This document shows positions 3,623 to 29,960 of a stretch of DNA of 64,000 nucleotides, piece after piece. This DNA comes from Alphaproteobacteria bacterium (GTDB lineage Bacteria; Pseudomonadota; Alphaproteobacteria; Micropepsales; Micropepsaceae), in the NCBI GenBank assembly GCA_016124635.1, contig WGNJ01000018.1, positions 276,551 through 340,550 on the forward strand. The letters run 5' to 3'. How positions within the stretch are numbered: the stretch's first letter is position 1; every line of letters begins with the position of its first letter. The position numbers were made by a program, and so were the translations under genes. The notes beneath the pieces are model-generated. The model ran no database searches and had not been told where the DNA came from. It saw only the letters and a program-made list of their open reading frames with translations.

Positions 3623-4138
3623 ATGGAGTATACGCGGACATACACGTGGCACGACACCGACGAGTTGATGGCGAAGGGCCTAGGGCTTTCGGGGCTCGAG
3701 GTGATGCAGCGGATCGCGCGGCGCGAGATCCCGGGGCCGCCGGTCGGGCGGCTGATCGGTGTCGCCGGTCTCGAGGTCGAGAAGGGCAAGGTCGGGGTCG
3801 GCTTCGAGCCGCAGCCGTTCCACTACAATTCGCTCGGCACCGTACACGGCGGCGTCATCGCAACGGCGCTCGACATCGTGCTCGGCAGCGCGGTGCAGAC
3901 GACGCTGAAGGCGGGCTACGGCTTCACGACGCTGACGCTCGAGCTCAAATATCATCGCGCGGTCAGCGCCAAGAGCGGCAAGCTCAAGGCGATCGCCGAG
4001 GTCGTGACGCGCGGGCGCGATATCGTGACGGCTGAGGCGAAGCTCGTCGACGCGCGCGAGCGGCTGTTCGCGACAGCGACGTCGACACTCATGATCTTCG
4101 CGCTGCCGGTCGGCGGCGGGGAGCCGGGCGACACATGA
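3623..4138 (+). CDS. PaaI-family hotdog-fold thioesterase
   Basis: The core NSLGTVHGGVIATALDIVLGSAV is typical of PaaI/4HBT thioesterases. GGGGGA SD lies upstream. GTG 3620 is an alternative start. Confidence 0.85.
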   Translation: MEYTRTYTWHDTDELMAKGLGLSGLEVMQRIARREIPGPPVGRLIGVAGLEVEKGKVGVGFEPQPFHYNSLGTVHGGVIATALDIVLGSAVQTTLKAGYGFTTLTLELKYHRAVSAKSGKLKAIAEVVTRGRDIVTAEAKLVDARERLFATATSTLMIFALPVGGGEPGDT

Positions 4139-4653
4139 CCTACATCATGGTCGACATCGAATCCGACGGGCCGATCCCCGGCGACTACTCGATGATCGCG
4201 ATCGGTGCGATCGTGGTCGAGCCCAAGCTCGAGCGGACGTTCCGCGCGACGCTAAAACCGATCAGCGAAAAGTGGATCCCCGACGCGCTTGGCGTAACGG
4301 GTTTCACACGGGAAGAGACGCTCGCCTTCTCCGAGCCCAAAGCCGTGATGGAGGCCTTCGCCGATTGGCTCAAGGAGGCTGCGGGCGACAATCCGCGCTT
4401 CATCGCCGACAACGCCGGCTTCGACTGGCAGTTCGTCAATTGGTACTTCCACCATTTCCTCGGGCGCAATCCGTTCGGCTGGAGCTCGATGGGCCTCGGC
4501 TCGATCTATGCGGGCCTGTCGAAGAGCATGCGCGGAAGCTTCAAGCATCTGCGCCGCACGGTGCACACGCACGATCCGCTCGACGACGCGCGGGGCAACG
4601 CGGAGGCTCTGCTCACCATGATCGAGACGATGGGGCTGCATGCGAAGCTCTGA
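4135..4653 (+). CDS. DEDD-type 3'-5' exonuclease domain protein
   Basis: Exo motifs MVDIESDG, ADNAGFDWQF and HDPLDDA are present. The start overlaps the upstream stop. Confidence 0.75.
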   Translation: MTYIMVDIESDGPIPGDYSMIAIGAIVVEPKLERTFRATLKPISEKWIPDALGVTGFTREETLAFSEPKAVMEAFADWLKEAAGDNPRFIADNAGFDWQFVNWYFHHFLGRNPFGWSSMGLGSIYAGLSKSMRGSFKHLRRTVHTHDPLDDARGNAEALLTMIETMGLHAKL

Positions 4654-4655
4654 GA

Positions 4656-5486
4656 TCAAGCGGTGCGTCGAACCAGCTCTTGCCGCGGCTCGCGATCGGT
4701 GAGCGCGAGGAACAGGACGATCGCCGCCATGCCGGCGGTGATCGCGACGTCGACGGCGGCGGCGTAGTACATCGTCGCCACGGTATTGAAGGCGGCGTGA
4801 AAGAGCGTCGGCACGATCACGGCGCCGGAGCGCATCATGAGCCAGGAGATGATGTAGTTGGCGAGCACGATCTGCAGCGTGAACATGCCCATCCAATAGG
4901 CGGCTTGATCCACGCTCAGCACAAAGGGACTCGCGAGCAGCATCGGGTAATGCCAAAGCGCCCACACGACGCCGAGCACCGTCGCGCCGCGCCAAAAGCC
5001 GTAACGCTCCGCGAGACGCGGCAGCGCGAAGGCGCGCCAGCCGAGCTCTTCACCGGCGGCAAGCGGAAGCCAGACGCCGGCGAGGAGCGCCACTTGCGGA
5101 TCGAGCCAGAGCTTCGGCGGCTTGTGCCCGCTATAGGCGGCCCAGGCAAGGGAGGCGACCAGCAGCGCCGCGGGTAGCACGAGCGCGATGCCGTAGAGCG
5201 GCAGCGGCGCGCGCAAGGTCGCGATGCGCGACCACCACTCGCGCAAGCGACCGGAAAGCGTTGCGGCGACGAGCGCTGCGATCGCGGGCGCAAAGCCCAT
5301 GAGGCGCATGGCGCCTTGCGGCAGGTCGTAAGGATGCGGCAGGCCGTGCTGCGCGAGCGCGGCCGGCACGCTCAAGGCCCAAGCCAAAGCAAATGCGAGA
5401 AGCCAAAAGATCGCCAAGTGAGCCCCCGCCCCCGCGCGTGCCCGCGTCCTGCCTCGCCATATTGGCAGGGCCGGAAGCGAGTTCAA
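4656..5486 (-). CDS. CPBP-family intramembrane glutamic endopeptidase (CAAX protease/Abi-like)
   Basis: Polytopic membrane protein with EELGWRAFALP, WALWHYP and FHAAFN motifs. Confidence 0.85.
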   Translation of the reverse strand: MNSLPALPIWRGRTRARAGAGAHLAIFWLLAFALAWALSVPAALAQHGLPHPYDLPQGAMRLMGFAPAIAALVAATLSGRLREWWSRIATLRAPLPLYGIALVLPAALLVASLAWAAYSGHKPPKLWLDPQVALLAGVWLPLAAGEELGWRAFALPRLAERYGFWRGATVLGVVWALWHYPMLLASPFVLSVDQAAYWMGMFTLQIVLANYIISWLMMRSGAVIVPTLFHAAFNTVATMYYAAAVDVAITAGMAAIVLFLALTDREPRQELVRRTA

Positions 5487-5508
5487 CCGGGCTCTGGTGC
5501 CTGCGGGC

Positions 5509-6252
5509 CTATTTCGGCTTGACGAACTTGAAGATGAATTGGTCGGTGTGGCCGCGGATCGACGGGTCGAAGACCAGATTGTTCTTCGGATCGTCGGGAT
5601 TGCGCAGGATATCGCTCTCGGCCTCGAGCTTGAAGCCGGCCGCCAAGATCTGCTGCTTGACTACGTCAGGGTCGATGCGATGGGTCTTGTCGATCTGCTC
5701 GGGCGTCGTGATGCCGGGGCCGGTGTGGTCGATGACGAAATAGACGCCGCCGGGCTTGAGCGCATCGAAGATCGCCTTATTCATCTTTGCGACGTCGACC
5801 TTCTGCCAGACTTGATCGTGATAGATCTGGCTGATGAAGACGAGATCGACCGGCGCGTCAAACTTGATCTCGTCCATCGGTTGTACGACGGCTTCAACGT
5901 TGGGATAGCCAGCGGCGGCCAGCGCTTTGACGGCCGGCGTCTCGGTCGGGAATTTGGCGTCGACCCATGTCGGGTTGAAGCCATAGACTTTGCCGTTCGC
6001 GCCGACGATGCGGCTCATAATGCGGCTGTAGTAGCCCTTGCCCGGACCGACGTCGACGACGTGGTCGCCTTCCTTGATGCCGGTGAGCGCCATGATCTCA
6101 GCCGGATGGCGCGCGGCGTCGCGATCGACGTCTTGCTTCGGCCGATCCTTGTCGGCGACGGCGGCCGCGATATTCGCCGGAATGTCGGCGGCAAGCGCCG
6201 GCGTTGCGGACGCAGCGAAGAACGCTGCGAGCGCGAATGTCAGAATGCGCAT
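5509..6252 (-). CDS. class I SAM-dependent methyltransferase with N-terminal signal peptide
   Basis: Signal-like MRILTFALAAFFAASATPALA and the SAM-binding motif VVDVGPGKGYYS. Confidence 0.8.
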   Translation of the reverse strand: MRILTFALAAFFAASATPALAADIPANIAAAVADKDRPKQDVDRDAARHPAEIMALTGIKEGDHVVDVGPGKGYYSRIMSRIVGANGKVYGFNPTWVDAKFPTETPAVKALAAAGYPNVEAVVQPMDEIKFDAPVDLVFISQIYHDQVWQKVDVAKMNKAIFDALKPGGVYFVIDHTGPGITTPEQIDKTHRIDPDVVKQQILAAGFKLEAESDILRNPDDPKNNLVFDPSIRGHTDQFIFKFVKPK

Positions 6253-6377
6253 GATGATCTCTCCCCAGAGCTTTCCGCGCGGAGCCTAGCGTGCTCCGCT
6301 CCGCATCGCGCGTGAGATTGCGGCTCGCTCACCGCTTTGTGACGCGCGGACGCCAACGCCCCGCAGAAAATCGAGCC

Positions 6378-6938
6378 TTACTTGCCGAGCAAGTCGACGA
6401 CCGCCGGATCGTTCGGCTTGATCTGTTTGTCGAGGACCAGATGCGCGAGGCCGTGCACGAAGGCCCACGCGTTGATGGCGTCGGCCTGGCCGGTTCTCCC
6501 CGTGCGCGACAGCGTGCCCGTCAACACGGCGAACGCGTTGTCGGCCGCGGCGCGCAACTCCGCGTGCTCCCTCCGGTCGAGCTCCGCGCCGAACATCAGA
6601 CGGTACAATCTCGGATTGTCGAGCGCGAAGCGGAGATAAGCGCGGCCGATGGCGTTGCGGCGCCGCTTCGCATCGGGCTCCGCCTCGGCCGCCGCGCGCA
6701 ATTTGGCACCGAACTCTTCGAACCCTTCCGTTGCAACCGCGGCCAGCAGCGCCGAGAGACTGTCGAAGTGACGGTACGGCGCGTTGTGCGAAACGCCAGC
6801 CAGCCGCGCGACCTCGCGCAAGGTCACGGCGCCGGCGCCTTCCCGTTGCACGATCTTCGCAGCCGCGGCGACCAGGGCGCGGCGCAGGTCGCCGTGGTGG
6901 TAGCCTGGTTTTTCGGCCGCCCGAAGTGATGTTGACAC
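6378..6938 (-). CDS. TetR/AcrR family transcriptional regulator
   Basis: HTH region TLREVARLAGVSHNAPYRHF. GTG start. Divergent from the dioxygenase gene. Confidence 0.9.
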   Translation of the reverse strand: MSTSLRAAEKPGYHHGDLRRALVAAAAKIVQREGAGAVTLREVARLAGVSHNAPYRHFDSLSALLAAVATEGFEEFGAKLRAAAEAEPDAKRRRNAIGRAYLRFALDNPRLYRLMFGAELDRREHAELRAAADNAFAVLTGTLSRTGRTGQADAINAWAFVHGLAHLVLDKQIKPNDPAVVDLLGK

Positions 6939-23877: not shown

Positions 23878-26223
23878 TCATCGCAAAAAGGCGCGCAGGC
23901 CGATAAATGCGGCAATGGGGGCACCAGGGCTTTGGAAGCGGTTGTCGGCATCGGCGCTGTTTGCCGGGACGCCTGGAGCGCCGATGCCCGCGGGGTCACC
24001 GAGCACGCCGAAGCTCGCATACTTCGCATCGAAGACGTTCTCTATTCCGGCGAACAAGTTCAGACTCTCCGTCGGGCTGTAATTCGCGTGGAGATTGACG
24101 AGCGCATAACCGGGCACCGGCGACATCTGGTTGGACTCGTCACCGCGGTAGAATTGCTCGCTGACAAAGACAACGCTGCCGCCGATCGTGATGCGCTGCT
24201 CAATCTTGTAGTCAAGCCCAGCTTTGACTCGGTGACGTGGAATACCCGGCAGGCGATCGCCAGCCTCGACCTCGATGTTGCCGTCCGTGTCCTGAAAGGG
24301 ATTTGAGGGCGAGTGCAACGTGAGCGGCGATAGGAATGTTGCGTCTACGAGGCTGTAGTTCAGATAACCGCTGAACCGGTCGTCGCGATAGTTGACGCCG
24401 GCCTCTATCCCTTGGCGACGCGTTCCCTCGATGTTCTGAAAGAAGCCCGCATTGAGCGACGTCGCCACGCCGTAGATGTCGTCATCAAGATCGGTTCTGA
24501 AGGCGCTGACATTCCAACTGACGCGCGCTTTCACAGCGTCGATGTCGAATGCACCGCGAACGCCGGCTTCGAACGTGTGCGCAACCACCTGCCGAAGCGT
24601 GGGCGGGTCGCTCGAAAGCGACGACGGCAACAGGCACGGGTGATCCGGATCCGAACATTCGATCTCACTAGGCGTTGGCGTGCGGTTGGCCTCAGCGTAT
24701 CCGGCATAAGCGGTCATGCTTGGCGTGAGCTTGTACGTGGCGCCGACCGCTGGATTGACCCGCTGGTAGTTGCTATCGCCGTTCAAGCTGATGCCCAGCC
24801 GATCGTTCAGTGCGATGCGTGCGTCGTTCCAGCGCACGCTCGCCGTTATCGCTAAGTGCGGTGTCACATCGAGCGTGTCCGTTGCATAGACGCCGTAATA
24901 CGTGGTCCCCGCGCCGAGGCTGACGGGCGTTGCATTGAAATCCGTCCCTTCGGGCGTCACGACGAAGAATCCTGACGGGAGTACGCGCAGCTTCGTATCG
25001 ATAACGCCGACCTCGGTCGCCGTATTGAAATCGGTCCGTGCGTGATCGATCGAGGCTCCGATAGCAAAATGGTTTTCGCCTCCGAAGATTGGCGCGATCG
25101 ACATCGCTTGAACCGTGCCGCCGGTGCCGCGCGAACGGATGGCTTCAAAGTCGTTTTGTCCGATCGGGATCGTGCCGCCTTGCGACAGATCGGGGATCGT
25201 AGCGCCATTGCCGTCGATGAGCGGCGTGACTTCATCGTCTTGGCACAGCGCGTCCGGCGCTGAGGAGCACGCGCTATATTCCGTCGTGTTACCGTTGACG
25301 ACGTTCTGTCGAAATGCGCGATAATACGCGTTCGCCTGCAGCGATAGCGTTTCTGTTACGGCGAGGGCGCCGTTCAGGGTGACGAAACTCAATCGGTCGA
25401 TATTGCTCTGCGGGCTGGTGAACACGAGCGCACGGTCGACCGCAAGCTCCTGCACAGGAGCCGGCGACTCGCCGGACAGGTGATTATCGGCGCCAGTGAA
25501 GCTAAGATCGATGGACGCAGTCTCCGTGCGATACGTCAAGTCGCCATAGAGTTGGCGCAGCGAACTCGGTGAAAACTCGCGCCAGCCGTCTTCGTCCAGC
25601 CACGTGCCGGCGATATAGGCAGCGAAATTGCCCTCGCTCGTGCCGAGTTCTCCCGAAGCGGTCCAACGGCCAAAGGAACCGCCCGATACCTCGCCGTGTG
25701 CTCCCGGCGCGTTGAAGCCGTTTTTCATCGAGACAATCACGGCGCCGCCAAGAGCATTCAGTCCGTAGACGGGGTTTTCGCTTATGAGGTCGATGCGCTT
25801 GATCGCGATCGACGGTACGAAGTCCCAGTTGACGGAATCGCCGAACGCTTCGTTGATGCGCACGCCGTTCTCAAAGACCGCAAGACCCTGAGGCGTGCCG
25901 AGCACAGGCGACGCCTCGAATCCGCGAAACAAGATGTCGGGTTGAAAGGGGTTGTCCAGGTTGTCGTTGATGCTGACGCTTCCGAGCGTGTTTTGAAGAG
26001 CCCGTGTTGCGCTCGCCGGCCCTTCGCGGTCGATATCGTCGGCCGAAAGCGTTTGGATATTTTGCGGCAGCTTATCTCTGTCGACGCCGGTCCCAGGAAG
26101 CGGCGTTGTGCCGACGACGACAACGTGCTCGATGGGCGGTTGATCTGCCGCGGCCACAGGGTCGACGAGGCCCCAACAGACCGCCATGCCGCAAACCACG
26201 CACCTGATTTTTGGTGCAACCAA
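23878..26223 (-). CDS. TonB-dependent outer-membrane receptor
   Basis: Plug motifs (NPFQPDILFRGFEASP, GVRINEAFGDSVNWDF, ENPVYGLNALGGAVIV) and a large beta-barrel region. TTG 26223 gives a signal-like LVAPKIRCVVCGMAVCWGLVDPVAAA. The ORF is open to 26340. Confidence 0.9.
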   Translation of the reverse strand: MVAPKIRCVVCGMAVCWGLVDPVAAADQPPIEHVVVVGTTPLPGTGVDRDKLPQNIQTLSADDIDREGPASATRALQNTLGSVSINDNLDNPFQPDILFRGFEASPVLGTPQGLAVFENGVRINEAFGDSVNWDFVPSIAIKRIDLISENPVYGLNALGGAVIVSMKNGFNAPGAHGEVSGGSFGRWTASGELGTSEGNFAAYIAGTWLDEDGWREFSPSSLRQLYGDLTYRTETASIDLSFTGADNHLSGESPAPVQELAVDRALVFTSPQSNIDRLSFVTLNGALAVTETLSLQANAYYRAFRQNVVNGNTTEYSACSSAPDALCQDDEVTPLIDGNGATIPDLSQGGTIPIGQNDFEAIRSRGTGGTVQAMSIAPIFGGENHFAIGASIDHARTDFNTATEVGVIDTKLRVLPSGFFVVTPEGTDFNATPVSLGAGTTYYGVYATDTLDVTPHLAITASVRWNDARIALNDRLGISLNGDSNYQRVNPAVGATYKLTPSMTAYAGYAEANRTPTPSEIECSDPDHPCLLPSSLSSDPPTLRQVVAHTFEAGVRGAFDIDAVKARVSWNVSAFRTDLDDDIYGVATSLNAGFFQNIEGTRRQGIEAGVNYRDDRFSGYLNYSLVDATFLSPLTLHSPSNPFQDTDGNIEVEAGDRLPGIPRHRVKAGLDYKIEQRITIGGSVVFVSEQFYRGDESNQMSPVPGYALVNLHANYSPTESLNLFAGIENVFDAKYASFGVLGDPAGIGAPGVPANSADADNRFQSPGAPIAAFIGLRAFLR

Positions 26224-26435
26224 ACCGCCTCCCCTCGTTACCCCACAGTTCGCCGCTTTTGGCGGGAGTCCGGATTTCCGTCGCAATGGACTACACGCCG
26301 GTGTTTGTCCTGTCACGCGAGTACGTTCGACGGATTTCAAGTTGGTGTCCCGGGGACTGTTCGGCCTTCGAGCGCTCGACTATTCGTCAACGCCCTAGCG
26401 GGAAAGGAGGCATTGCCCGTAATTGCGATAAAAGC

Positions 26436-26555: not shown

Positions 26556-27038
26556 ATGCCGAACAAACCGTCGCGCACGCCCGAAGGCGATGCGCGCTTT
26601 TTCATTGCGCTCGAAAACGGGCACGCCGTGGCGGCCGCCTGCAAGGCCGCCGGCTACGCGCGCAGCCGCGTCTATGCCTGGCGGCATGAGGACGCCGAAT
26701 TCGCGGCGCACTGGGACGCAGCGTGTGCCGTCGCCAGCGATCTGCTCGAGGAAGAAGCCGACCGGCGCGGCCGCGACGGCTACGACGAGGCCGTCTTCTA
26801 TCGCGGCGAAGAAAGCGGAACGCGGCGGAAATACTCGGACGGCTTGCTGCTCGCGCGGCTCAAGGCGCTGAAGCCCGAGAACTATCGCGAAGGTATGACG
26901 GCCGCGACCGGCAAGCTCACCGTGATCGTTCGCGATTTCGACGCCGAGGCCGCGCTCAAGCAACTGATCGCCGAGAAGCGGTTGTCGCCGGACGAACTGG
27001 AAGAGGGCTTGCGACGACGGCTGACGAGCGAGACGTAG
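26556..27038 (+). CDS. phage terminase small-subunit-like HTH protein (orphan)
   Basis: N-terminal HTH-like ARFFIALENGHAVAAACKAAGYARSRVYAWRHEDAEFAAHWDAA, followed by RGRDGYDEAVFYRGEESGTRRKYSDGLLLARLKALKPENYRE. That pattern is typical of small terminase/HTH phage proteins. No other phage genes are nearby. Confidence 0.6.
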   Translation: MPNKPSRTPEGDARFFIALENGHAVAAACKAAGYARSRVYAWRHEDAEFAAHWDAACAVASDLLEEEADRRGRDGYDEAVFYRGEESGTRRKYSDGLLLARLKALKPENYREGMTAATGKLTVIVRDFDAEAALKQLIAEKRLSPDELEEGLRRRLTSET

Positions 27039-27150
27039 CTGTTCGGAGCGGGATTGCTTTCGATTGAGTTCTATGGCGTGCTTGCAAGGTTCTACCGCGC
27101 CGTAGCGTAAACGAGCTGCACACAAACTCTTCAAAAGGAGTAAGCGCCTT

Positions 27151-27624
27151 ATGAGCATTCGCCTGCTAAGAATCTCAGCGATGACGCTGCTTGCAGCCGT
27201 GTTCGCTTTGTCGGCTGCCGTCGAAGCCGCTAACGCAAAGGGTTTCCAGCGTATTCAAAACCGCTGGAAACCGAACGAGTACATTCACATCGAGAACGGC
27301 GAGGTCGAAGCCGGACCGATCGAACCAGGCTGGTGGAGCGCGCAGTGGAAGATCGAGCGTGTGGACGGCTTCGTCCGCTTCAGGAACAAATGGAAGCCCG
27401 ACCAGTATCTCCACGTCGAGCATGGCGAGTTGGAGGCTGGGGAAATCGAGCCGGGCTGGTGGAGCGCAATGTGGATTCTCGAACCGGCGGAAGCGGGCTA
27501 TGTCCGGATCTGCAACCGTTGGAAGGAGGGCACGTGCATTCATATCGAACACGGTGAGATCGAGGCCGGCCAAGTCGAGGACGGTTGGTGGAGCGCCATG
27601 TGGCGCCTGCGCCCGGCGAACTGA
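27151..27624 (+). CDS. secreted protein built from three internal 42-43 aa repeats (beta-trefoil-like)
   Basis: Signal peptide MSIRLLRISAMTLLAAVFALSAAVEAANA. Three copies of G[FY]xR[IF]xN[RK]WK..xY[IL]H[IV]E.GE[VLI]EAG.[IV]E.GWWSA.W. AAGGAG SD lies upstream. Confidence 0.8.
   Translation: MSIRLLRISAMTLLAAVFALSAAVEAANAKGFQRIQNRWKPNEYIHIENGEVEAGPIEPGWWSAQWKIERVDGFVRFRNKWKPDQYLHVEHGELEAGEIEPGWWSAMWILEPAEAGYVRICNRWKEGTCIHIEHGEIEAGQVEDGWWSAMWRLRPAN
27241..27621 (+). repeat. intragenic tandem triplication (units 27241..27366, 27367..27495, 27496..27621)
   Basis: The protein-level repeat is obvious by eye. The nucleotide units are diverged but alignable (for example GGCTGGTGGAGCGC recurs in each unit). 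Confidence 0.85.
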
Positions 27625-27647
27625 CCTTTAGATTTGGACTCAAACTC

Positions 27648-27676
27648 AACGGGCGCCATTGCGGCGCCCGTTTCGT
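27648..27676. terminator. hairpin terminator between convergent genes (AACGGGCGCC-ATTGC-GGCGCCCGTT, then TCGTT)
   Basis: 10-bp perfect stem 24 nt after the stop at 27624. On the minus strand it lies about 130 nt beyond the stop of 27805..29655. Confidence 0.7.
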
Positions 27677-27804
27677 TGACAACGCCTCGCCGGCTGCTTG
27701 CGGGAAGAAGACACTGAACCGCGGTGATAAATGGGACGGGCTCGCGCTACCCTGTCTCGTGCCTAGACGCGAAGGGCATGCCAAGCCGGACAACAGCGGC
27801 GATC

Positions 27805-29655
27805 TCAATGCGGCGGCCAGACGATGTCCGCGTCTTCTCCGGCTCCGCCAGGTTCGCCGTCGCGGCCGAAGCTCTCGAGCGTGATGGTCCCCTCGGACGA
27901 AAGGCGATAGACGAACACGCGGCCCCAACCGTCACGCAGCATTTCGTCGTTAGCTAGAAGCGGGCTGGTCGCCGTCGATCCCGGTGTGGCGCGCAGCAAG
28001 GAAGCCAGCGTGTCGGGATACTTGCCTTCGAGCAGGCGATACGCCTCAAGCGCGCTTCCGATCGTCGCGATACGCGCGCGCGTCGTTCTCTCGTGCGCCG
28101 CAGCGGCACCGCGCATGAGATCGATCACGGTCAACGCGATGAGCGGCGTGACAATCGCAACGACGGCCAATGCGTCTACAAGCGCCGCAAGGATCGGCCG
28201 GCGCCGCACCGGCGGTGCGTCCAAGGAGACCTCGCTCATCGCAAGATCGGATTGTGAACGGAGTGCTTGGCGCAGCGCCGCGGTGTAGCTCGCGCTGGTC
28301 GATGTCGCGGCCGTCAATATCTTCAAGCGGCCCGTCGCCGTGCGATACCAGCCTATGCAAGCGCGCTTGCCGCCACCTTTCGTGTGCGGAAGAGCGTCGC
28401 TCGGCAACGACATCTCGCGCTGAAGAAGCCGCTGTGCCGCCTCACCGTGCGCAAGATGCGGAGGCAGAATAAACAACGTCTTCTGCTCATGACCGGCGGC
28501 GCGAATATGGCCGAGCTCCCAAAGGACGCCGTCCGTGTTGTCCATGACGACGACGACCGCACGCGCTCCATTCGCAAGCTTGGCGACGGCATCTTTCCAA
28601 TGACTCTCATCGACGAAGGTGCGCGCGGCGCCGAACGGCGCGGGCCGGCCCGGCAGACCGATAGCGACGACGGGACCGATCGGCGTACCTTCTTCGAACA
28701 GGAGGTGATCGAAACGCGGGCGGGGCTCGCCCAGCGACATGAGCCAGCGGAAGGGTCCGCGTCTCGGGCGCTTCAGCTTGACCTGATCGTCGCCGAATGA
28801 CCGCAGGAAGAGGATCGCGGGCCGATGGTCGACGGAGGCGATGGACTCAAGGGAGTTGCGCGCGGTCGTGCGCGCGAGCCACCGCAGCGCCGCCGAGATC
28901 GCCAACAACGCCGCAACGATAAGGGGAATGAACACGACGGTTCCAAGGCGTTCGGCGCAGTGAAGGGCCTCAACTTGGCCGGGCTTGAAACAGGCGGCGA
29001 CGTCGGCCGCTTGATCGCGCAATCCGCCCAAAACAAAGACGATAGCGATCCCGGCGCCCAACGACAGCGCAAGCGTCGTCGCGGCAAAGAGAGTGGCGGC
29101 CGCAACCCGCCTTCCGCTGCTCGGCAGCCACGCGCAAATCGGATGAATATTGAGGAGGCTCGCCGCCACGCCCGCGACATTCGCACGACCCGGCGCGATC
29201 GCGGCGACTGCGTTGCGGACATTGCGTCGCGCCGTCACGAGACGAAAGCCGTCGAGCGTTACGCGCAGCGCGAATCCTAGGGCAAGAACTGCGCCCGCTA
29301 CGTTCATGCCGATCTCGACAGCGTCGCCGGAGGCGAGGAGATTGGTGAGATCGATCGCGCCAAAGGCGAATACAAAACCGAACAGCACCGTGCCGACAGC
29401 GAGCGGAACGCGACGGAAGAGGACCATGCTCAAGGTCCAAGGCAGGGCGGTCATGAGGAAGCCAAGCGCGATGGCCATCATCGTCGGCCAAATCGGCCCC
29501 ATCGTCGCCGGACCTATCGCGGCGGTTACCAGCAGAAGGATGACCGACAACAATAGAAAGGCCGAAGCGAAAGCCGCCAGAAACGAAGCCGCCGCCATGC
29601 CTTTGGCGATGGGATCGAGCGCGACCTCGTCGAATTCGGCTGAGCGTTGGTCCAT
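27805..29655 (-). CDS. polytopic membrane protein with unassigned central alpha/beta module and C-terminal T2SS pseudopilin G-like domain
   Basis: About 6 hydrophobic helices (29655..28828). A soluble module starting ILFLRSFGDD (28827..28207). A TM helix plus GspG-like HERTTRARIATIGSALEAYRLLEGKYPDT...LRDGWGRVFVYRL...ESFGRDGEPGGAGEDADIVW (28206..27805). The start is ATG 29655 or 29703, and the ORF is open to 29955. Confidence 0.8.
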   Translation of the reverse strand: MDQRSAEFDEVALDPIAKGMAAASFLAAFASAFLLLSVILLLVTAAIGPATMGPIWPTMMAIALGFLMTALPWTLSMVLFRRVPLAVGTVLFGFVFAFGAIDLTNLLASGDAVEIGMNVAGAVLALGFALRVTLDGFRLVTARRNVRNAVAAIAPGRANVAGVAASLLNIHPICAWLPSSGRRVAAATLFAATTLALSLGAGIAIVFVLGGLRDQAADVAACFKPGQVEALHCAERLGTVVFIPLIVAALLAISAALRWLARTTARNSLESIASVDHRPAILFLRSFGDDQVKLKRPRRGPFRWLMSLGEPRPRFDHLLFEEGTPIGPVVAIGLPGRPAPFGAARTFVDESHWKDAVAKLANGARAVVVVMDNTDGVLWELGHIRAAGHEQKTLFILPPHLAHGEAAQRLLQREMSLPSDALPHTKGGGKRACIGWYRTATGRLKILTAATSTSASYTAALRQALRSQSDLAMSEVSLDAPPVRRRPILAALVDALAVVAIVTPLIALTVIDLMRGAAAAHERTTRARIATIGSALEAYRLLEGKYPDTLASLLRATPGSTATSPLLANDEMLRDGWGRVFVYRLSSEGTITLESFGRDGEPGGAGEDADIVWPPH

Positions 29656-29960
29656 CGGCCTCGTCGCGAGTTCCCGTTGAATCCGGCACGAATTCGCAGC
29701 CATTTGCAAGATTCGGGCGCAACGGATTCCTTCTCGCAATCCAACTACGCCTGAGGCGTGAAGAAGGACAGGACAAACGAGACGGCTCGCGCTTTGCCGT
29801 GTCTCGTGTCCCGGCGCGCGGGGCGCGGATTTGCGCAGCGCATGACGTTTGAAACAGGACACGTGCGAGACGGGTGACCCCTGTCTCGTTTGTCTCGCAT
29901 GTCCCGCTTGAGGCGGCGCCAGGCCACCTGCTAGCGTCGGCCTCAAGGGAGACATTCATC

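Follow-up and report, generated by a model that had tools for sequence, protein, structure and literature searches.

A family of trefoil carbohydrate-binding modules (CBMs), provisionally named CBMXXX, has just been described from the GH87 α-1,3-glucanase of Flavobacterium johnsoniae (Widén, McKee, Koropatkin, Larsbrink, bioRxiv 10.64898/2026.01.30.702845; hereafter Widén et al.). The founder, FjCBM_GH87, binds α-1,3-glucan and α-gluco-oligosaccharides; the Kd values for malto-, isomalto- and nigero-oligosaccharides are 0.26–1.4 mM (Widén et al.). Mutagenesis led to loss of binding at a dominant β site (W832/W833/W853) and a weaker γ site (W768/W877), each CBMXXX site being formed by a Trp–Trp pair before a short helix and a further Trp from the initial loop of the leaflet that follows; the binding residues of CBM13 come from other loops (Widén et al.). 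A second F. johnsoniae CBMXXX module showed almost no binding to the ligands tried (Widén et al.). The family in the preprint comprises 376 sequences; some members have aromatics at all three sites, and 'a few single CBMXXX domains', one of them from Sulfurovum, are mentioned as possible lectins or fragments (Widén et al.). The module of PDB entry 1UPS, which is appended to the GH16 catalytic domain of a Clostridium perfringens GH16_24 enzyme (Endo-β-Gal-GnGa), is named as a member 35% identical to the founder; it is without α-site aromatics and has a Tyr–Trp pair in the γ site (Widén et al.).

The window, a 64,000-nucleotide stretch of alphaproteobacterial DNA, contains a gene for a free-standing protein of this kind. 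The open reading frame (27151–27624, plus strand) starts with ATG, encodes 157 aa and ends with a TGA stop codon (27622–27624, plus strand). A Shine–Dalgarno-like AAGGAG (27135–27140, plus strand) can be read 10 nt 5′ of the ATG. A terminator-like hairpin (27648–27672, plus strand) with a 10-bp GC-rich stem and a 5-nt loop, followed by UCGUU, is located 24 nt 3′ of the stop codon (RNA folding energy −26.6 kcal/mol, z = −2.1); with its weak T tract, it is missing from the output of a terminator consensus scan. Two antisense open reading frames, 27175–27573 (minus strand, 132 aa) and 27380–27928 (minus strand, 182 aa), overlap the gene and were rejected as mere shadows that the conserved plus-strand gene casts in GC-rich DNA. 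The antisense frame is also open in six homologous loci, where it appears as a 'conserved neighbour' and could be a mis-called gene.

Residues 1–29 (27151–27237, plus strand) constitute a predicted Sec-type signal peptide, MSIRLLRISAMTLLAAVFALSAAVEAANA, followed by KG. As read from the sequence, its n, h and c regions follow the pattern of a Sec/SPase I leader: R4 and R7 are the basic residues, the hydrophobic core spans 17 residues, A-N-A occupies positions −3 to −1 and there is no lipobox Cys. The layout, the AxA motif and the equivalent leaders present in relatives agree with the earlier note, which had placed the cleavage near ANA/KG. In the AlphaFold2 (AF2) model, the leader is a low-confidence helix set apart from the trefoil domain. 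The mature protein of about 128 aa (residues 30–157; about 15.2 kDa, pI about 5.4) contains 12 Trp; the architecture is limited to a leader and a single trefoil, with no other domain.

The mature part consists of three consecutive units of 42, 43 and 42 aa, delimited by a regular expression, by alignment of the units and by AF2 strands. Repeat 1, the α leaflet (residues 31–72; 27241–27366, plus strand), contains NRW39, GW61W62 and W66, with strands at residues 33–37, 44–46, 53–55 and 66–71. Repeat 2, the β leaflet (residues 73–115; 27367–27495, plus strand), contains NKW81, GW103W104 and W108, and aligns with the WW-bearing leaflet of 1UPS (TWWSAQW). Repeat 3, the γ leaflet (residues 116–157; 27496–27621, plus strand), contains NRW124, GW146W147 and W151, and aligns with NRWK and TYWTSQW of 1UPS. 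The consensus proposed in the earlier note for repeats of 42–43 aa, written as a regular expression, has exactly three matches (residues 31–66, 73–108 and 116–151), so that all three units fit it. Unit-versus-unit BLASTP comparisons gave E values from 4e-24 to 2.5e-20, which puts the repetition far beyond chance. The accompanying estimate that more than half of the positions are identical holds for pairs of units (55–60% amino acid identity); across all three units it does not, since 19 of the 43 aligned columns (44%) are identical. The third unit also possesses Cys121 (27511–27513) and Cys129 (27535–27537) on adjacent strands of a hairpin (RIC-NRWKEGT-C-IHIE); both are shared with P0002 and P0003, the two nearest orthologs, but the wider family does not conserve them, and they may form a lineage-specific disulfide.

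The fold was modelled with AF2 using an alignment of 64 relatives. The mean pLDDT is 91.3, with block means of 95–98 over the mature part, and the model shows twelve strands in a 3 × 4 pattern, three four-strand units with the pseudo-threefold arrangement of a β-trefoil, and a short helical turn at each WSA. A Foldseek search against the PDB gave 292 matches at E ≤ 1e-3, and the best 50 of the 292 are all β-trefoils. The first is the C-terminal domain of 1UPS (E 5e-10, 33% identity, RMSD 1.7–2.2), followed by CBM42 (3KMV), the trefoils of the mosquitocidal holotoxin (MTX), botulinum HA33/HA17 and CBMs attached to GH43 and GH54 enzymes; further matches include the designed ThreeFoil and Symfoil proteins and SeviL, and cocaprin 1 is found at rank 37. 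TM scores normalised to query length are 0.65–0.75, lowered by the unaligned leader. The strand pattern and these matches together support the trefoil interpretation, and the mature protein is, according to the model, a β-trefoil as the earlier note had supposed; that note had named a non-trefoil fold as the outcome that would speak against it, and the predicted fold and the Foldseek matches agree on a trefoil.

Only one domain of solved structure is related in sequence, that at the C-terminus of the C. perfringens GlcNAc-α-1,4-Gal-releasing endo-β-galactosidase, 1UPS. A phmmer comparison with 1UPS residues 309–418 gave an E value of 1.4e-14, and the family profile matched residues 292–419, covering all three leaflets, with an E value of 3.3e-20. 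The 1UPS module is thus homologous over the whole trefoil as well as being the best structural match, and its WWSAQW and NRWK motifs occupy the same positions as in the window protein. Since the similarity to this domain is significant and the preprint names the domain as a member, the window protein belongs, by sequence homology through the 1UPS module, to the proposed family CBMXXX. In the strict CAZy sense, a CBM is a module of a carbohydrate-active enzyme; the window protein consists of leader and trefoil only and is, in these terms, a lectin homologous to the CBM.

The kinship with ricin-type lectins is more distant. A Pfam search of the protein returned only PF14200 (RicinB_lectin_2), at 19.5 bits, below the cut-off of 25.6, and neither PF00652 nor AbfB; an NCBIfam search of the protein gave no meaningful match. 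PF14200 is matched at E ≤ 1e-3 by 27 of 64 relatives, which places the lineage at the fringe of the ricin-type superfamily and makes a superfamily-level relationship with ricin-B type lectins likely. The resemblance to ricin and AbfB subdomains seen in the earlier note is therefore remote but real. That note was also right to set the GWWSAxW block apart from the canonical QxW: the units read SA[Q/M]W, a signature of a separate trefoil CBM family. Ricin-B lectins and CBM13 share with the window protein the trefoil, the three subdomains of about 42 aa, a core Trp opening the fourth strand and the potential for three sites, as well as the weak profile similarity to PF14200; they differ in having QxW in place of A-[Q/M]-W, and the window protein has no PF00652 match and a sub-threshold PF14200 match. 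CBM42 (AbfB-type; 3KMV, 9NXI) is the second-best structural class (E about 1e-7, TM about 0.69–0.78); its identity to the window protein, however, is only about 16%. The designed proteins ThreeFoil (3PG0) and Symfoil (3Q7W, 4D8H) are also highly symmetric internally and superpose well (TM normalised to target length 0.75–0.83), whereas the window protein is natural and its symmetry, at the 55–60% identity between its units, is kept by selection.

The known binding sites of the family can be projected onto the window protein. In the phmmer alignment, GWW (residues 102–104) falls on TWW of 1UPS, NRWK (122–125) on NRWK and GWW (145–147) on TYW, in agreement with the β site (three Trp) and the γ site (Tyr and Trp on the last loop) that the preprint assigns to 1UPS. 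The spacing of W39, W103, W104 and W124 (+64, +65 and +85) equals that of residues 768, 832, 833 and 853 of FjCBMXXX_GH87, a comparison of published residue numbers, not of sequences. The putative α site would be formed by W61 and W62 with W81 (GWW of repeat 1, N[RK]W of repeat 2), the putative β site by W103 and W104 with W124 (GWW of repeat 2, N[RK]W of repeat 3) and the putative γ site by W146 and W147 with W39 (GWW of repeat 3, N[RK]W of repeat 1). The sites of the founder likewise combine a WW loop with the initial loop of the leaflet that follows. By analogy, the opening Trp pair of GWWSAxW can be explained as ligand-stacking residues, and the N[RK]WK Trp of the following leaflet as the residue that completes the pocket. 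The last Trp of the block (W66, W108 and W151) is invariant in the family and opens the fourth strand of its unit in the AF2 model; it probably lies buried in the core and corresponds to the W of QxW.

All three predicted sites of the window protein are WWW triads. Three WWW triads are also present in 46 of 169 three-repeat relatives, and 90 of the 169 have nothing but aromatics in all three triads. The protein thus differs from the 1UPS module, with its incomplete set of aromatics, and from FjCBMXXX_GH87, which has two sites, β dominant and γ weak, on an α-1,3-glucanase; the window protein has three complete predicted sites and no enzyme. The idea of three equivalent ligand sites, raised in the earlier note, is plausible and well supported by homology, each unit keeping the residues of sites verified by mutagenesis in a related CBM.

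The symmetry of the protein might reflect youth or constraint, and the earlier note offered both a recent triplication and a strong symmetric constraint. The units are 60–65% identical in DNA, and where they share a residue the codon differs in about half of the cases; dS between units (NG86) is saturated and not computable for two of the three pairs and 1.5 for the third. Tandem Repeats Finder reported nothing. A tree of single units (135 units from 45 proteins), built on only 41 columns and with deep branches not resolved, groups the units by position: it contains 25 label changes, the mean after shuffling being 63.9, and none of 200 shuffles gave a value as low as 25. A recent triplication was rejected on the basis of the DNA identity, the saturated dS, the lack of a reported tandem repeat and the grouping by position across orthologs. 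For every unit of the window protein, the closest unit in the orthologs is the one at the same position, which indicates that the symmetry is held by constraint, not by youth, as the other branch of that proposal had it. As judged from these comparisons, the triplication is older than at least the divergence of the orthologs compared, and the threefold symmetry is ancient and maintained by selection. The gene is under purifying selection, with a dN/dS of 0.15–0.21 against the two nearest orthologs, at dS values near saturation.

Repeat number was counted with a single-unit HMM over 218 collected relatives. Three units are found in 171 proteins, two in 22, six in 11, five in 7, four in 3, one in 3 and eight in 1; most of the counts that are not multiples of three represent fragments or proteins with one degenerate unit, such as P0051, whose first unit is without WW. 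The earlier note had held that repeat numbers incompatible with a closed threefold fold would count against a trefoil; the prevalence of three units (171/218), along with six (11/218), is compatible with such a fold. Full-length proteins composed of a leader and one trefoil make up 36 of the 218 relatives, so the stand-alone form is a genuine architecture, not an assembly artefact; one stand-alone homolog belongs to Bernardetia sp. OM2101 (L013).

In longer proteins, the module occurs in fusion with MACPF, F5/8 type C, B-lectin, fn3, Xlink, phospholipase-C-type phosphoesterase and GH31 domains and with a CDtoxinA-like segment. The WW-type trefoil behaves as a portable binding module. MACPF fusions occur in P0150, P0151 and P0094, the GH31 fusion in P0135, the phosphoesterase fusion in P0092 and the CDtoxinA-like segment in P0112; the MACPF, phosphoesterase and GH31 partners are absent from the list in the family-defining preprint. 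An exhaustive search gave 1115 clusters (50% identity) at E ≤ 1e-3, so the family far exceeds the 376 sequences of the preprint. Hosts identified in a locus search made with 12 sequences include Alpha-, Beta- and Gammaproteobacteria, Bacteroidota, Spirochaetes, Myxococcales, Gemmatimonadota and Ignavibacteria.

One single relative and one subfamily have distinctive features. In Antarctobacter heliothermus DSM 11445, a complete 110-aa open reading frame (P0049; L037:6013–6345, plus strand) encodes a signal peptide and two units, followed by a stop codon and then by ruvB; no third unit was found downstream in any frame. Such a chain could not close a trefoil alone and might trimerise into two trefoils. 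Designed two-unit 'Difoil' proteins reportedly trimerise in this way, and P0049, if it does so, would be a natural analogue of a proposed evolutionary intermediate. A Bacteroidota subfamily of 260–290 aa proteins (L014–L036 and similar loci, from Cyclobacteriaceae/Cytophagales MAGs) combines the trefoil with a conserved C-terminal extension and repeatedly adjoins two-component-type genes, encoding a LytTR response regulator and a protein of about 666 aa. In locus L018, for example, the neighbour gene at 3923–5923 lies beside the trefoil gene at 5944–6801, and one neighbour cluster spans 24 loci.

The surroundings of the gene in the window are as follows. A TonB-dependent receptor gene (23878–26340, minus strand) lies about 800 bp upstream, and a 160-aa HTH/small-terminase-like open reading frame (26556–27038, plus strand) is located between it and the trefoil gene. 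On the other side, a convergent gene (27805–29955, minus strand) encodes a membrane protein whose length is 616–716 aa according to which start is taken, and which carries a T2SS GspG domain (PF08334) at its C-terminus; further neighbours include an SDR and an RND pump. The trefoil gene is single-copy in its genome and was found in none of 60 other genomes, a set that comprises 34 from its genus, 2 from its family and 24 from its class. An ortholog of the TonB receptor at E ≤ 1e-30 is likewise absent from the 34 same-genus genomes, and only one other genus genome has a part of the membrane protein, the N-terminal one (49% identity over residues 93–556). Since the trefoil and receptor genes are absent from the 34 other genus genomes and the membrane protein is rare in them, the whole stretch between about 23.9 and 30 kb has the look of accessory DNA specific to the strain; local GC is 0.578 against about 0.63. 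The same-genus comparison gave no clean empty site that would mark the boundaries of an insertion, both flanking genes being absent or rare in the genus too.

The neighbourhoods of the nearest orthologs, P0002 and P0003 (about 62–65% identity), are unrelated to that of the window and differ completely; the nearest ortholog has a gene for a 171-aa protein upstream of it, and this protein shows no relationship to the HTH protein of the window. Clustering of neighbours over 79 loci gave no shared neighbour for the proteobacterial stand-alone forms, recurrent neighbours being confined to a Bacteroidota subfamily. An operon or module with the HTH open reading frame or with the membrane protein gene was considered and found no support, no partner being shared with the ortholog loci. 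Genomic context gives no functional hint.

The reading that we prefer, and consider likely, is that the window protein is a free-standing trefoil of family CBMXXX whose three Trp triads would allow it to act as a trivalent glycan-binding lectin. Sugar binding, the use of all three sites and the role as a lectin are what we infer from homology. The small protein would be exported through its Sec-type leader, and the mature single trefoil would act as a free, trivalent lectin of low affinity and high avidity. It would work outside the cytoplasm, where its target would be a repetitive glycan carried by a polysaccharide, by a matrix or by the surface of another cell, and it would not serve as the helper of a tethered enzyme. 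An α-linked glycan is a reasonable first guess at the ligand because of the catalytic partners of the family (GH87, GH13, GH99, GH16_24 and GH31). These partners span different glycans, so ligand specificity is not transferable, and the conserved Trp residues are no guarantee of a known ligand, given that the second F. johnsoniae module bound almost nothing.

Other roles can be set against this one. The structural neighbours HA33/HA17, the MTX holotoxin trefoils and CdtA, together with relatives in which the module is joined to a MACPF pore-forming domain or a CDtoxinA-like segment, bring to mind the B-type component of a two-part toxin or enzyme system, which would dock a separate effector on target-cell glycans like the HA33/HA17 or CDT-A trefoils. 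We think this unlikely: the gene is single-copy, no toxin-like or effector gene adjoins it, and the unrelated neighbourhoods of its nearest orthologs contain no common partner. The proximity of the TonB-dependent receptor gene on the opposite strand, and the joint absence of both genes from the 34 other genus genomes, would suit a periplasmic or surface protein that captures glycans and feeds oligosaccharides to the receptor. However, the two genes are not co-oriented and are separated by an unrelated HTH gene, no TonB receptor gene is found beside the trefoil gene at the closest orthologous loci and no glycoside hydrolase gene occurs near it, which leaves glycan capture a little less probable than the toxin role.

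Fold alone does not fix function, and cocaprin 1 and other non-lectin trefoils are among the Foldseek matches; the protein could then be a protease inhibitor of the Kunitz-STI or cocaprin type or a protein–protein adaptor. Sequence homology leads only to the CBM/lectin lineage (1UPS, RicinB_lectin_2, SeviL and MOA), however, and the conserved surface residues are aromatics typical of sugar stacking, so a non-carbohydrate function seems improbable. Least credible is a decaying or non-functional horizontally acquired open reading frame. The patchy distribution (0/60 related genomes) and the slightly lower local GC are what such an origin might leave, but the frame is intact, with a ribosome-binding site, a leader and a terminator-like hairpin, the low dN/dS against the orthologs indicates constraint and all family-invariant residues are kept; we regard decay as very improbable.

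A wider interpretation, put forward tentatively, extends the lectin reading to the family. The WW-type trefoil CBMs may have given rise to a widespread clade of free, secreted, near-symmetric trivalent lectins with all three pockets active, which would recognise a repetitive α-linked glycan, such as a matrix polysaccharide of fungi, algae or bacteria, through avidity. The family would then be several-fold larger and architecturally broader than in the preprint, with MACPF, GH31 and phosphoesterase fusions and a natural two-repeat form.

The window protein is a new stand-alone three-site member of a just-described trefoil CBM/lectin family, not a new kind of system, and it is most probably a trivalent glycan-binding lectin. 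It is a compact natural symmetric trefoil with three intact predicted copies of a pocket characterised so far only in two-site, enzyme-tethered modules. For the host genome it represents a single accessory gene of modest consequence. For the family, it is a convenient test case for whether the α site can function and for the effect of valency on polysaccharide binding, and it may be a possible scaffold for glycan probes.
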